Assembly: GCA_046759165.1 (NCBI GenBank)
Contig: JBHIBS010000005.1
Coordinates: 1-54,885 of the forward strand
From: a bacterium
GTDB taxonomy: Bacteria > UBA6262 > WVXT01
DNA length: 54,885 nucleotides
Direction: 5' to 3'
Position 1 is the first letter of the stretch. Every line of letters starts with the position of its first letter. The position numbers were made by a program, and so were the translations under genes. Positions 15,232 to 18,162 of the stretch are shown here, piece after piece. Under the pieces are notes generated by a model. It made no database searches. It worked only from the letters and a program-made list of their open reading frames with translations, and was not told the DNA's origin.

Positions 15232-16050
15232 CTATCTTTCCTGTTCTTGCAATTCGGTTTCCAATGGTTCCACTTTTTCCACTCTCAGAGGTCCTTTCTG
15301 TTCCATCTTAATCAGACCTTTTCCTTTTAATCTGGTGAAAATCAGTTCATTAACCTTCCCCAGATCTTCAGAAATAGTATCGACATCTTTCCCATTCATA
15401 TATAGTTTGACACCATCCACATTTCCAATGCGAACATTCATTTCATTCTTTGCTACCCATCTTTTCTTTTCACCAGGAAAGAGTGTTCCTTCAAAAGAGA
15501 CCACACCGTCCCCAATCACTCGTAGCCAAGTTTTATCATTTATTTCCGCTACTATAGAAATATCTTTGGGCATACTAGTGGAGACATTTATCTTTGCCTT
15601 CACCTGTTGAGAGAGTTGCCGTGAAGCCGATTGGAGAAAAAAAATCGCGGAAAGACCCGCCCCCACAACCACTCCAATCGCCAAGATAAATGCAATGGGG
15701 CTCTTGTTGGTAAATCGGAGTGCAGCGATCCCTTCTCTGGACATCAATTTCTCTTCTGCGCCCCAACTCATCACAATAGGGAATTTAGGATTGAGGTCCA
15801 TTTTGTCTTTTTGTCCGGAATGCTCTCTCTTATAAATATGGACAAGCGATTCAGCGTCCAGCCCCAGATAACGAGCATAATTCCTGAGAAATGAGACCAC
15901 ATAAATCTTTGCTGGAAAAACATCGTATCTTTCTTTTTCCAAGGCTTCCAGGTACTTCTTAGCTATTTTCGTCTCTTCTGAAACCTGATGCAAGCTAATT
16001 TCTTTATTGCGACGAGCTTCCTGTAGTCGTTTACCGACATTTTCCGCCAT
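15232..16050 (-). CDS. rodZ: RodZ-like protein (HTH, TM, DUF4115)
   Basis: N-terminal HTH (YLEALE, FLRNYARYLGLD), single TM, C-terminal WLRV..DG / IGN domain; lolA-rodZ-pgsA synteny. Confidence 0.85.
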   Translation of the reverse strand: MAENVGKRLQEARRNKEISLHQVSEETKIAKKYLEALEKERYDVFPAKIYVVSFLRNYARYLGLDAESLVHIYKREHSGQKDKMDLNPKFPIVMSWGAEEKLMSREGIAALRFTNKSPIAFILAIGVVVGAGLSAIFFLQSASRQLSQQVKAKINVSTSMPKDISIVAEINDKTWLRVIGDGVVSFEGTLFPGEKKRWVAKNEMNVRIGNVDGVKLYMNGKDVDTISEDLGKVNELIFTRLKGKGLIKMEQKGPLRVEKVEPLETELQEQER

Positions 16051-16103
16051 TTCTGTTCCTATCAGTTTTGCAGGGGTAAAACCGTGTCCACAAATGTCAT
16101 TGA

Positions 16104-16109
16104 TATAAT
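16104..16109 (+). promoter_or_regulatory. -10 half (TATAAT) of the circle-junction promoter
   Basis: Sits 17 bp from TTGACA (17370-17375) once the two ends are joined at one TG. Confidence 0.85.
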
Positions 16110-16184
16110 GAAAAGGCTTGTCCTCCCCGAGTTATTTTAGATAAAATAACTCTAAGTGAAAATTTCCGAAAGGAGGACGAAGCC

Positions 16185-17249
16185 ATGAACGCCTATATTG
16201 GTGTAGACTTACACGAGAATTATTCATTTTTTACTGCAAAGAACAGAGATGGAAAAATTATGGCACCACTACGAAAAATTATCAATCGGGAGAGAGAAAT
16301 TTTAGACTATCTCTCGCACTTTAAAAACCCCAAAGTAACGCTTGAAGCAACACTAAATTGGTACTGGCTTGTTGACCTTTTACAGGATTATAACTACGAT
16401 GTAACACTTGCTCATCCCAAGAAGGCAAAAGCTATTGCTTCTACCAAAATAAAATCTGACAAAATAAGTTCAAAAATATTAGCCGACCTTTTACGGTCTG
16501 ATTTAATACCTGCGTGTTATATCCCGGATAGAGAAAAAAGAACACTTCGTGATTTCCTGAGACATAGAACAGTACTTGTCTCCATAAGAACTTCTCTTAA
16601 GAATCGCATCCATGCTGTACTTCGTAATTTCAACTTCCATTGTCCTTACAGTGATCTGTTTGGTAAAAGTGGCAGAACCTGGCTTAAACAGGTATCACTT
16701 CAAAGTTATTATAAAACGATTATTGATAACTTTTTAAGCCTTATCGATGCTATAGAACCAAAAATTCATGAGGTTACAAAAATTATCAAAGAACTTGCTG
16801 AAAATAATCCCCAGGCACGTTTAGTTGATGAAATACCTGGCATCGATTATTACTCCGCTCTTTTAATTGTCCTGGAAATAGGAGATATAAGAAGATTCTC
16901 TGATCGTAGACATTTTTGTTCCTATATCGGTATAGTTCCCTCATCTCACAGCTCAGGTGACATAGACTATACAGGAAAGATTACCAAAGAGGGTAACAGT
17001 TGGCTTCGCTGGATTATTATTGAAGCTGCTCAGAAATCGCAAACTTTCGTGAACAACCCATATCACTCTCTGTTTTTGAAAATATCTAATAAGAAAGGTT
17101 CAGCTATTGCCAAAGTTGCTGTTGCCAGGAAAATAGCCACAGCGATATATTATATGTTGTCAAAGAACGAACATTTTAAACTTCCGAAATCTTTAAGGTC
17201 TCAAATATCTGGGGTAAGCCCGGTGCTCGCAATAGCCCAACGAGGCTGA
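16185..17249 (+). CDS. IS110 family DEDD recombinase/transposase
   Basis: GVDLH (D8), LEAT (E54), KSDKIS (D92; fourth acidic position is Ser95), IPGI, YIGIVPSSHSSG (catalytic Ser region), KEGNSWLRW, VAVARK; GGAGG SD. Confidence 0.96.
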   Translation: MNAYIGVDLHENYSFFTAKNRDGKIMAPLRKIINREREILDYLSHFKNPKVTLEATLNWYWLVDLLQDYNYDVTLAHPKKAKAIASTKIKSDKISSKILADLLRSDLIPACYIPDREKRTLRDFLRHRTVLVSIRTSLKNRIHAVLRNFNFHCPYSDLFGKSGRTWLKQVSLQSYYKTIIDNFLSLIDAIEPKIHEVTKIIKELAENNPQARLVDEIPGIDYYSALLIVLEIGDIRRFSDRRHFCSYIGIVPSSHSSGDIDYTGKITKEGNSWLRWIIIEAAQKSQTFVNNPYHSLFLKISNKKGSAIAKVAVARKIATAIYYMLSKNEHFKLPKSLRSQISGVSPVLAIAQRG

Positions 17250-17320
17250 GTCATTGAATGGGAAACCCCTCAAGCCGAATGAATATATACTGTGCCATAG
17301 AGCACAAATAAGTGCGTGAG
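17211..17320 (+). ncRNA. Predicted bridge RNA/seekRNA with target- and donor-binding loops
   Basis: Two stem/internal-loop/hairpin modules folded by eye. Loop 1 carries GCTCGCAAT and GTCATTG (target matches); loop 2 carries TATAT and ATAAGTG (donor-junction matches). Confidence 0.78.
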
Positions 17321-17369
17321 CGAAAAACCAAAGATCTTTCTTAAATATCATAAAAATCAAAGATATCCC

Positions 17370-17375
17370 TTGACA
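17370..17375 (+). promoter_or_regulatory. -35 half (TTGACA) of the circle-junction promoter
   Basis: Outward-facing consensus -35 overlapping the right sub-terminal IR. Confidence 0.85.
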
Positions 17376-17389
17376 AGCCTTTTCATAAG

Positions 17390-17457
17390 TGCGAGCGACT
17401 GAAAGGAGCGTGGCAATCTCCAGATTTCTTCGGTTGCTTCGCTCCCTCGCAATGACA
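17390..17457. repeat. Right part of the interrupted GTCATT-type REP
   Basis: TGCGAGCGACTGAAAGGAGCGTGGCAATCTC...TTGCTTCGCTCCCTCGCAATGACA. The missing left tip TGTCAT lies at 16095-16100. Confidence 0.85.
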
Positions 17458-17508
17458 ACAAAATCATTGTAGGCACACATTCAATCTGTGCATAATTTCC
17501 AGTATTGC

Positions 17509-18162
17509 CTAAGGGGATTCGAATACTTCTGCTTGGAAAGGTATCTTAAACTCAAAAATTTCATCATCTACTTCAGGATTCTTTACGATGTTGTCCAGAT
17601 AAGTGGAAACTACTGTAAAACTATCGCTGACTTCTGTTTCCACTGGCAACCAATATTGTTTTGAAATTACGAGGATTATCTCTACCCCATCTTGATTTTT
17701 TGGGACTAATTTAATCTTATAGTTTTCTCCTTTTCCTTCTACCACTTCTTTTCTATAATTTTCCAAATCTCCAATCCTACTTGCCCAAAAGAAGAGACCT
17801 AAATTCAGTCCCATTAACTCTTCCAATCTGCCAACTGAATGGATGGAAACTTGATTATACTCAGGCAAATAGAACCAGGCCTTTTTGCCATTGCATACAA
17901 TGATTTGTGGATAAGGCTGAATGTACTCAGCGTATAGCTTATCGGGAGCTTTAAATTTTATTGAACCTTTAACCAGTTTTTTCTCGAAAGTAGCTTTTAT
18001 CAGTATTTTCTGTTCGAAGTCGAAACTCCCTGTCTCTATGTTCTTTCTTTCCCTCTCCAATTTTTTCAGAATATAGGAAATTGTGTCCTTTTGAGAAAAG
18101 CCTGGAGTAGAAATTAGAAAAGTCAAACAGAGAAAAATGGCACTTGTTTTAGTTACGTTCAT
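17509..18162 (-). CDS. lolA: Outer-membrane lipoprotein carrier LolA family protein
   Basis: Signal peptide, FEQ, PYPQIIVCNGKKAWFY.P..NQV, C-terminal FEFKIP; downstream of ftsK. Confidence 0.85.
   Translation of the reverse strand: MNVTKTSAIFLCLTFLISTPGFSQKDTISYILKKLERERKNIETGSFDFEQKILIKATFEKKLVKGSIKFKAPDKLYAEYIQPYPQIIVCNGKKAWFYLPEYNQVSIHSVGRLEELMGLNLGLFFWASRIGDLENYRKEVVEGKGENYKIKLVPKNQDGVEIILVISKQYWLPVETEVSDSFTVVSTYLDNIVKNPEVDDEIFEFKIPFQAEVFESP

Follow-up and report, generated by a model that had tools for sequence, protein, structure and literature searches.

A probable bispecific guide RNA gene at the right end of an IS1111-type insertion sequence residing in a REP-like repeat

The DNA analysed here (contig JBHIBS010000005.1; "the window" denotes the whole stretch of 54,885 nt, and all coordinates are positions in it) carries an IS1111-type insertion sequence composed of a gene for an IS110-family recombinase and, at its right end, a region that is very probably the gene for a bispecific guide RNA of the kind described as bridge RNA or long seekRNA (Table 1). 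The guide motifs in this region, the ends of the element, a covarying fold, covariation of the guides with the insertion sites of relatives and two natural cases of retargeting are all observed in the sequences compared; from these we infer that the recombinase binds and uses an RNA transcribed from this region. In the following, LTG and RTG stand for the left and right target guides, LDG and RDG for the left and right donor guides, and P1 and P2 for the outer stems of loops 1 and 2.

Table 1. Positions of the insertion sequence, its recombinase gene and the parts of its candidate guide RNA gene.
Feature	Position	Strand	Basis or remark
IS1111-type insertion sequence, 1,289 bp	about 16103-17391	+	Ends set by a 92.2% identical copy (L100) in unrelated flanks
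Left target half AATGTCAT and left TG core copy (16101-16102)	16093-16102	+	Sequence reading; L100 homology starts at 16095
Predicted -10 half of junction promoter, TATAAT	16104-16109	+	Full promoter only after excision to a circle
Left subterminal inverted repeat ATGAAAAGGCTTGTC	16108-16122	+	5 nt inside the core; geometry recurs in 72 of 161 homologue loci
Recombinase open reading frame, 354 aa	16185-17249	+	Pfam PF01548, PF02371
Candidate bridge/seekRNA gene	17211-17320	+	Target-binding loop 17211-17269, donor-binding loop 17270-17319; covariance model
P1 5' strand GGGGTAAGCCC: GGGGT (P1a), AAG bulge, CCC (P1b)	17211-17221	+	Pairs with 17260-17269; helices 1 and 2
RTG GCTCGCA	17225-17231	+	Reverse complement of TG+CGAGC; pairs with top strand
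Target-loop inner hairpin AGCC-CAACGA-GGCT	17234-17247	+	Arms 17234-17237/17244-17247; helix 3
LTG GTCAT+TG	17250-17256	+	Same sense as top strand
P1 3' strand GGGAAACCCC: GGG, AA, ACCCC	17260-17269	+	Constrained fold, strand-swap energies, covariation
P2 5' strand TCA (proposed)	17270-17272	+	Pairs with TGA 17317-17319; weak
RDG TATAT	17284-17288	+	Reverse complement of the left end's first 5 nt, ATATA
Donor-loop inner hairpin TGTGC-CATAGA-GCACA	17291-17306	+	Arms 17291-17295/17302-17306; RNAalifold, helix 5
LDG ATAAG+TG	17308-17314	+	Same sense as right end plus core
CG, handshake-like dinucleotide	17315-17316	+	Equals the first 2 nt of the right target flank
Predicted -35 half of junction promoter, TTGACA	17370-17375	+	Right end joined to left end
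Right subterminal inverted repeat GACAAGCCTTTTCAT	17372-17386	+	3 nt inside the core
Right TG core copy and right target half CGAGCG	17390-17397	+	Start of REP-like repeat; inverted partner arm ends at 17456

The limits of the element follow from the copy at L100, a metagenome contig on which the homology extends over 1,302 nt: the alignment spans window positions 16095-17395 and the flanks beyond are unrelated, which places the element at its tabulated limits with a TG on both sides. Which of the two TG copies belongs to the element is a matter of convention. The junctions read AATGTCAT-TG-ATATAA on the left (16093-16108) and CATAAG-TG-CGAGCG on the right (17384-17397). They agree with the first-pass annotation of this DNA, which had derived from them an empty target and the circle junction CATAAG-TG-ATATAA; the rebuilt empty site GTCATTGCGAGC indeed occurs three times, unoccupied, in the element's own genome. 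The subterminal inverted repeats are perfect (15/15 bp) and fall within the 7-17 bp published for the IS1111 group (PMC11208160; PMC11187229). The non-coding left end in front of the open reading frame (ORF) comprises 82 nt (16103-16184), while 142 nt separate the stop codon from the right end, or some 210 nt if counted from the end of the conserved protein, and the longer non-coding side is thus downstream.

In its own assembly the element is single-copy, and the adjoining 67 nt on its right (17390-17456) recur on many contigs. From this recurrence, the 12 occurrences of the 11-mer GTCATTGCGAG in the genome and the three free sites, we conclude at the sequence level that the element occupies a fixed site within a palindromic repeat of REP-like type (REP, repetitive extragenic palindrome). 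Two further loci of this genome deserve mention. Some 100 nt from a contig end, at C3:58800-58826 (locus L013), a solo 27-nt fragment of the right end, with the -35 box, is joined to an inverted REP arm; it is 100% identical to window positions 17359-17385. The fragment may have been left behind by a copy since lost or by a recombination that went wrong. Another recombinase gene of the IS110 family, 39% identical, is located at C2:4966-5793 (locus L019), together with a subterminal inverted repeat of 16 bp, ATGAAAGCATAGTGCA. Where its core is expected, the two dinucleotides differ (AG and GG), and the RNA covariance model R2 (see below) gave no match at this locus at E<=0.1.

The recombinase ORF is intact and is the only long one in the region. 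Its product scores 61.9 bits with PF01548 (DEDD_Tnp_IS110; cut-off 29) and 75.7 bits with PF02371 (Transposase_20; cut-off 21.3), and these two domains, together with an RNA located downstream of the ORF, bear out the earlier assignment to the IS1111 type of the IS110 family. The catalytic positions D8, E54 and D92 and the Ser-Gly motif (S257-G258) are present. The fourth DEDD residue is not acidic: in the alignment to 8wt6_A (phmmer E 8e-12), Ser95 (codon 95, 16467-16469) aligns with D105 of IS621, which is among the residues reported to form the composite active site (Hiraizumi et al., 2024; PMC11208158). A Ser at this position is shared by the 11 closest proteins (60-92% identity); it is present in 12/35 proteins of the alignment and in 18/161 homologue loci belonging to several sublineages, with an Asn in one further locus. 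Ser95 lowers, as far as the alignment can tell, the case for labelling this protein a canonical DEDD enzyme; the homology to the IS110 family is untouched, because it rests on the two Pfam domains. Since several Ser lineages have multiple insertion sites, a Ser at the fourth position seems to be tolerated.

Conservation of the protein stops close to residue 330; for most relatives the alignment includes 93% of the query. The tail of the ORF is therefore probably functionless read-through, since the proteins of most relatives end at about this residue. The last ~20 codons overlap the RNA gene (window 17180-17249), and the stop codon TGA (17247-17249) shares the last base of the target-loop hairpin. 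The protein search yielded 3,016 relatives at E<=1e-20 among 7,061 candidates; the 11 at 60-92% identity all reside on contigs the size of an insertion sequence, except for one contig of 35.5 kb. Across the phylum, a recombinase match was found in only 1 of 12 genomes, i.e., the window's own, and among the genome records retrieved for comparison the nearest named ones have ~40-46% protein identity.

All loop motifs reported by the first-pass annotation are present at the positions it gave, although not each of them keeps its original extent. The LTG has the same sense as the top strand and would thus pair with the bottom strand. For the RTG, a stretch of nine nt (GCTCGCAAT, 17225-17233) had been proposed, of which the seven nt GCTCGCA are retained; the two extra bases (AT) were rejected, as no more than 8 and 14 of the 37 relatives, respectively, show pairing of these bases with their own left target. 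In the donor loop, the AC that follows the RDG faces the core TG without complementing it. The stem suggested to close this loop, TCA..GC/GC.TGA, is reduced to a weak TCA/TGA, because its GC/GC part consists of the G of the core and the handshake-like dinucleotide. This dinucleotide, CG, matches the target flank at 2/2 positions and the element's own donor at 0/2, and the corresponding pair in the target loop, AA, matches the donor at 1/2.

Chance occurrence of the guides was assessed with 20,000 dinucleotide-preserving shuffles of 17190-17371. Taken singly, the 7-mers LTG, RTG and LDG were found at frequencies of 0.006, 0.008 and 0.019, and the 5-mer RDG at 0.23; LTG, RTG and LDG together occurred in 0 of 20,000 shuffles.

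Stronger evidence for guide function comes from relatives inserted at other sites. Profile scans with an alignment of 35 proteins (A1) provided 80 loci on genome contigs and 80 on metagenome contigs, which, L100 aside, are 30-46% identical. At 72 of 161 loci an inverted repeat with an ATGAA-like start (ATGAA, ATAAA, ATGAG, ATGGA, ATGAC) is placed as in the window, i.e., left flank, core, 5 nt and repeat on one side and repeat, 3 nt, core and right flank on the other. Where enough flank was available, the core dinucleotides of the two sides are identical in 66/68 loci, mostly TG, with AG and TA in subgroups; this agrees with the TG core proposed before, which is present on both sides of the window's element. 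The target and donor sequences of the relatives were derived from this repeat geometry and hence independently of the RNA. For 64 loci with distinct junctions, each RNA was compared with its own junction and with those of other loci having the same core. Exact matches of at least 5 nt plus core were found to the own junction in 24/64 cases for the LTG and 15/64 for the RTG, against 80/2474 and 126/2474 for junctions of other loci; for the LDG, 53/64 matched the own right end against 704/2474 (28.5%).

Positional detail was obtained from an alignment of 50 unique segments of 129 nt (A2; 50/53), which were selected on an exact LDG match. In this set, the five pre-core positions of the LTG match the own left target at fractions of 0.64-0.94, compared to 0.25-0.31 after swapping, and an LTG with <=1 mismatch to the own site is present in 37/50 segments (3.3% for other loci's sites), an RTG in 39/50 (6.1%). 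The covarying register of the RDG, the complement of left-end positions 1-5, falls exactly on the TATAT of the window, with fractions for positions 3-5 of 0.92/0.82/0.98 (own) versus 0.38/0.31/0.40 (swapped). Furthermore, the two bases after LDG and core equal the first two of the target right flank at 0.88/0.72 (own) versus 0.44/0.31 (swapped). A column-by-site scan on a model-based alignment of 30 unique sequences with known junctions, unselected on any guide, gave its strongest signals at 17253/17254 (LTG), 17286 (RDG), 17316 (handshake-like base), 17312 (LDG) and 17227/17228 (RTG region), the last reflecting a 2-nt register spread among subgroups. Here 17312 follows the donor (right-end) position -1 at 1.00 versus 0.54, 17286 the left-end position +4 at 0.96 versus 0.47 and 17316 the target position +3 at 0.86 versus 0.38.

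All four guides consequently covary, in register, with the target and ends of their own element, a check that the first-pass annotation had called for. Homologues with different targets do not keep the same loops; their guides track each relative's own junctions. The order of the parts is constant as well (RTG, inner hairpin, LTG, closing stem, RDG, inner hairpin, LDG), so that the right guide precedes the left one in both loops, as originally read, which is the IS1111 order. Two other candidate matches were dismissed as chance. An alternative RDG that does complement the core, ATATCA (17345-17350), is matched in 4/64 relatives versus 7.7% and, for longer matches, in 0/64, and CACAAAT (17303-17309), which matches the left flank from -12 to -6, is absent in L100.

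The RNA structure was examined with folding and covariance methods. With the four guides held single-stranded, P1 and both inner hairpins form the minimum-energy structure; constrained folds in which the RTG was not fixed had no P1, neither for the window nor for L100. Among the relatives, the P1 duplex has -18.1 kcal/mol with its own strands and -10.9 kcal/mol with swapped ones (Wilcoxon p = 3e-9; the relatives are not independent). RNAalifold on A2, in which the stems are misaligned, recovered only the donor-loop hairpin, with compensatory changes in 3/4 pairs. A MAFFT alignment of six trimmed RNAs (A3) was too poor to act as a seed, and the covariance model was seeded from the window and L100 with a structure like that of the first-pass annotation; this gave 11 further full-length matches and the model was rebuilt once on 13 sequences (R2). 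The rebuilt model matches at full length in 113/162 sources, with few exceptions just 3' of the ORF and on the recombinase strand, and in the own 1.9-Mb genome the window copy is the sole match at E<=1.

In the model alignment, 95.8% of the cells pair, compared to 75.6% in shuffles and 21-43% in slid controls, and 18/19 pairs have changed on both sides, with 214 double-change cells versus 48, a value reached by 0/500 shuffles; these counts come from an alignment fitted to the model, which favours structure, and from relatives that are not independent. Helices 1 and 2 (P1) are paired in 95.1% and 97.0% of cells with 8/8 pairs changed on both sides, helix 3 (target-loop hairpin) in 98.4% with 4/4 such pairs, and helix 5 (donor-loop hairpin) in 94.2%. 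P1a, P1b and both inner hairpins, i.e., the outer stem of loop 1 and the hairpins of the first-pass annotation, are thus supported by covariation, whereas the outer stem of the donor loop is weak.

Some relatives depart from the common layout. At locus L112 (1277-1445) a tandem repeat of GCTAATGCTTATATA-like units lies inside the donor-loop hairpin and stretches the RNA match to 169 nt. At loci L099 (2849-2961), L177 (2849-2962) and L174 (357-467) the model matches upstream of the recombinase ORF, with only 110-125 nt between ORF and right repeat; judging from these model matches, the RNA gene seems to have changed ends within the clade.

Two natural cases of retargeting support guide function, in so far as this can be read from sequence. 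The guides of L100 differ from those of the window at one base only, 17225 G->C, which turns the RTG GCTCGCA into CCTCGCA, and its target right flank reads CGAGG instead of CGAGC. A second allele became apparent when contigs of four public DNA runs were aligned to the window; it is represented by single contigs in three runs from two studies, whose alignments stop at 17393/17394. Changes at 17223-17226 give it the RTG TTTCGCA and a change at 17253 the LTG GTCCTTG, five changes in the guide regions in all. In both L100 and the second allele the donor-hairpin pair 17295/17302 has changed from C-G to T-A, which is compensatory. The 12-mer predicted by the guides of the second allele has 9 copies in the window's own genome, inside another hairpin repeat (GGAGTCCT-TG-CGAAAGCAAGG); this site is a prediction from the allele's guides and from repeats of the window's genome. 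Only 1,748 of 16.8 million 12-mers have >=9 occurrences, and the mixed 12-mers, in which the left half is that of the window and the right half that of the second allele, or the left half that of the second allele and the right half that of the window or L100, have 0 copies each. The guides of the three alleles thus fit three different repeat variants, which argues that movement continued after the change to Ser at the fourth catalytic position.

At least three REP-like families sharing a ...TTGCGA... core (window 17392-17456, many contigs) can be distinguished. Family one reads GTCATTGCGAG[C/G]...GGCAATC, occurs as inverted pairs and fits the guides of one element allele; family two reads GTCATTGCGAACGAAGTGAAGCAATC; and family three, GGAGTCCTTGCGAAAGCAAGG, fits the guides of a different allele than family one.

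When the computed right end is joined to the left end, the junction reads TTGACA-N17-TATAAT, a perfect sigma-70 promoter; the integrated element has ACCGTG at the -35 position. No circle junction was present in contigs from the four public DNA runs, the only joint being a repeat artefact in X4. A possible internal promoter at 17122-17151 (10/12 matches) was discounted, as the region has 14 such sites where 4.5 are expected. By analogy with IS621 and ISEc11, excision as a circle would join the ends and so create the junction promoter, which would transcribe the recombinase gene and the RNA on one transcript, the RNA probably being trimmed thereafter. The RNA would then fold into two internal loops. 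In loop 1, closed by the two-part stem GGGGU..CCC/GGG..ACCCC, the guides would jointly read the 12-bp site GTCAT-TG-CGAGC in the REP-like repeat; in loop 2, UAUAU would pair with the first 5 nt of the left end and AUAAGUG with the right end plus core, so that this loop would read the circle junction. The CG after the LDG, which equals the first two bases of the target right flank, would pair only after strand exchange and may thereby favour insertion.

Several observations weigh against the assignment of 17211-17320 as a bispecific guide RNA gene, either as a whole or in part. None of the 23 public runs listed for the stretch is on record as RNA. The unconstrained minimum-energy fold of 17205-17325 is unexceptional (z = -1.36) and lacks the outer stems, the RTG pairing with the 3' tail instead; it has -32.8 kcal/mol compared to -24.5 kcal/mol for the guide-loop structure. 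The window's own P1 duplex (-14.2 versus -11.7 kcal/mol swapped) is equalled by 17% of the swaps. The selection behind A2, the structural bias and non-independence behind the pair counts and the predicted nature of the second allele's site count on the same side. If, moreover, an Rfam scan of 15900-17700 is considered, which returned no bridge RNA family and only two chance-level miR-458 matches (E 4.2 and 9), it could be argued that the matches are due to chance or act as DNA, the internal junction copies being protein-binding or decoy sites, and that RNA is not involved at all. We regard this as scarcely credible, since the three longer guides never co-occurred in the shuffles and four helices keep pairing through two-sided changes, the signature of a folded single strand and unlike duplex DNA sites; in addition, the combination of one sense and one antisense guide with respect to the site is also that of the RNAs demonstrated by experiment (PMC11187229; PMC11208160). 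An alternative that we consider unlikely, albeit to a lesser degree, is that the RNA gene is real and this copy a fossil, immobilized by the loss of the fourth acidic DEDD residue or by another cause. Ser95 in place of the composite active-site residue D105 of IS621 (PMC11208158), the single copy in an assembly with three perfect free sites and the same set of public runs, of which 0/23 are RNA, would all be in line with a fossil. However, its ORF is intact, its inverted repeats match at 15/15 positions and its junction promoter is perfect; the Ser is common to the closest proteins and recurs in other loci (see above), among its sublineages are sets whose insertion sites differ and whose guides match these sites, and the fit of three alleles to three repeat variants indicates movement after the change to Ser.

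The donor loop raises a question of its own, namely whether only loop 1 guides, as in a target-seeking seekRNA, with loop 2 a scaffold or processing module and the ends recognised by the protein via the subterminal inverted repeats. For ISEc11, a seekRNA of 82 nt with target matches only was reported to suffice for transposition; it mobilized a mini-IS more effectively than did the 154-nt RNA, whose role the authors describe as open (PMC11187229). Judging from this experiment, a donor loop may be dispensable in IS1111 types. Our data contain weak points of the same kind. The RDG is an A/T-only 5-mer found in 23% of the shuffles and lacks core pairing: the register that the first-pass annotation gave to TATAT holds, covarying with the left end, whereas a guide including the core complement is found at the own end in 0/64 relatives versus 44/2474 for others. 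P2 retains two pairs in the model, one with 45 gaps and one varying one-sidedly, and a P2 of >=3 bp is predicted in 13/50 relatives. The ends of the relatives are also conserved, which inflates matches, as is evident from the 28.5% of LDG matches to other loci's ends. Nevertheless, donor-loop bases covary with the variable end positions, both in A2 (left-end positions 3-5) and in the set unselected on the LDG (17312 with right-end -1, 17286 with left-end +4), and the dinucleotide after the LDG covaries with the target right flank, which a mere scaffold would hardly account for. Loops complementary to the donor have also been reported, by inspection, for IS1111 elements (Durrant et al.; PMC11208160). 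A guide role for loop 1 alone thus appears quite improbable, and we retain the bispecific guide RNA.

If the bispecific guide RNA is accepted, a further and rather doubtful extension is that the element and its relatives represent a naturally minimal IS1111-type bridge system (RNA ~110 nt, recombinase ~330-354 aa) that would be unlike IS621 in three connected respects: a Ser replaces Asp as the fourth catalytic residue and yet the lineage keeps moving; the RDG stays off the core; and the handshake dinucleotides follow the bottom-strand guides, implying an inverted strand order or exchange polarity relative to transcription. On this extended reading, the three alleles may reflect a lineage that moves from one repeat family to another within a single vent-community genome, each time through one to five substitutions in its guides.

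This guide RNA class was published in 2024 (bridge RNA, seekRNA), and the element adds a member to it; it opens no new class and gives no evidence for a new principle. It provides one well-documented natural example of the RNA-guided recombinases described in that year, along with a full guide map for an IS1111-type clade, covering target loop, donor loop and handshake-like bases, from ~50 relatives with different sites. The two natural retargeting events offer a ready-made test of specificity, and a Ser recurs at a catalytic position thought essential in IS621. For annotation, the assignment explains why the ORF has a long tail, why a repeat carries a single-copy insertion and why the assembly is interrupted near repeats of this kind.

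Among known systems, the element most resembles the seekRNA-encoding ISEc11, ISPa11 and ISKpn4 (Siddiquee et al., 2024; PMC11187229). In IS1111 types the RNA is encoded downstream of the recombinase ORF (PMC11187229; PMC11208160), and in these three it likewise lies in a long non-coding region there, in elements with subterminal inverted repeats. The guide order is the same, with the guide that complements the top strand placed 5' of the one for the bottom strand, and at the insertion point both matches overlap (PMC11187229). The joined ends of the published elements also form a junction promoter, from which the seekRNA is co-transcribed (Siddiquee et al., 2024; PMC11187229), ISPa11 also targets a REP-like repeat, and ISEc11 and ISXne4 present a natural retargeting between close relatives like that described here (PMC11187229). 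The differences are the donor-matching second loop read here (that paper assigns no settled function to the long form), the TG core, the Ser at the fourth DEDD position and the fact that the present element is known from its sequence alone (cf. PMC11187229). ISPpu9, ISPpu10 and other REP-targeting IS110-family elements can be likened to it by description only, as they occupy a fixed position in repetitive extragenic palindromes (PMC12288879; bioRxiv 10.64898/2026.03.19.712850).

With the IS621 bridge RNA the element shares two internal loops, each with an inner hairpin and two opposite-strand guides around a 2-nt core (PMC11208160; PMC11208158), one loop reading the target and the other the joined ends, and the recombinases share the catalytic Ser-Gly motif, although their similarity is low (phmmer E 8e-12 to 8wt6_A). 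In contrast to IS621, whose RNA of 177 nt is encoded at the left end and whose core is CT, the RNA is encoded here at the right end, 3' of the gene, comprises ~110 nt and has a TG core, with the guide order reversed in each loop; both donor-loop guides of IS621 include the core (PMC11208160), whereas the RDG here lacks core pairing. The handshake principle of IS621, whereby each loop has, beside its 3' guide, a dinucleotide matching the DNA partner of the other loop, applies here to the CG that equals the target right flank. These bases follow LTG and LDG here and RTG and RDG in IS621, where they pair with the other DNA after top-strand exchange, and the two layouts would match if the polarity of the site is inverted relative to transcription. 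By this analogy, the handshake pairs of the window correspond to the configuration that in IS621 terms favours insertion (PMC13626964).

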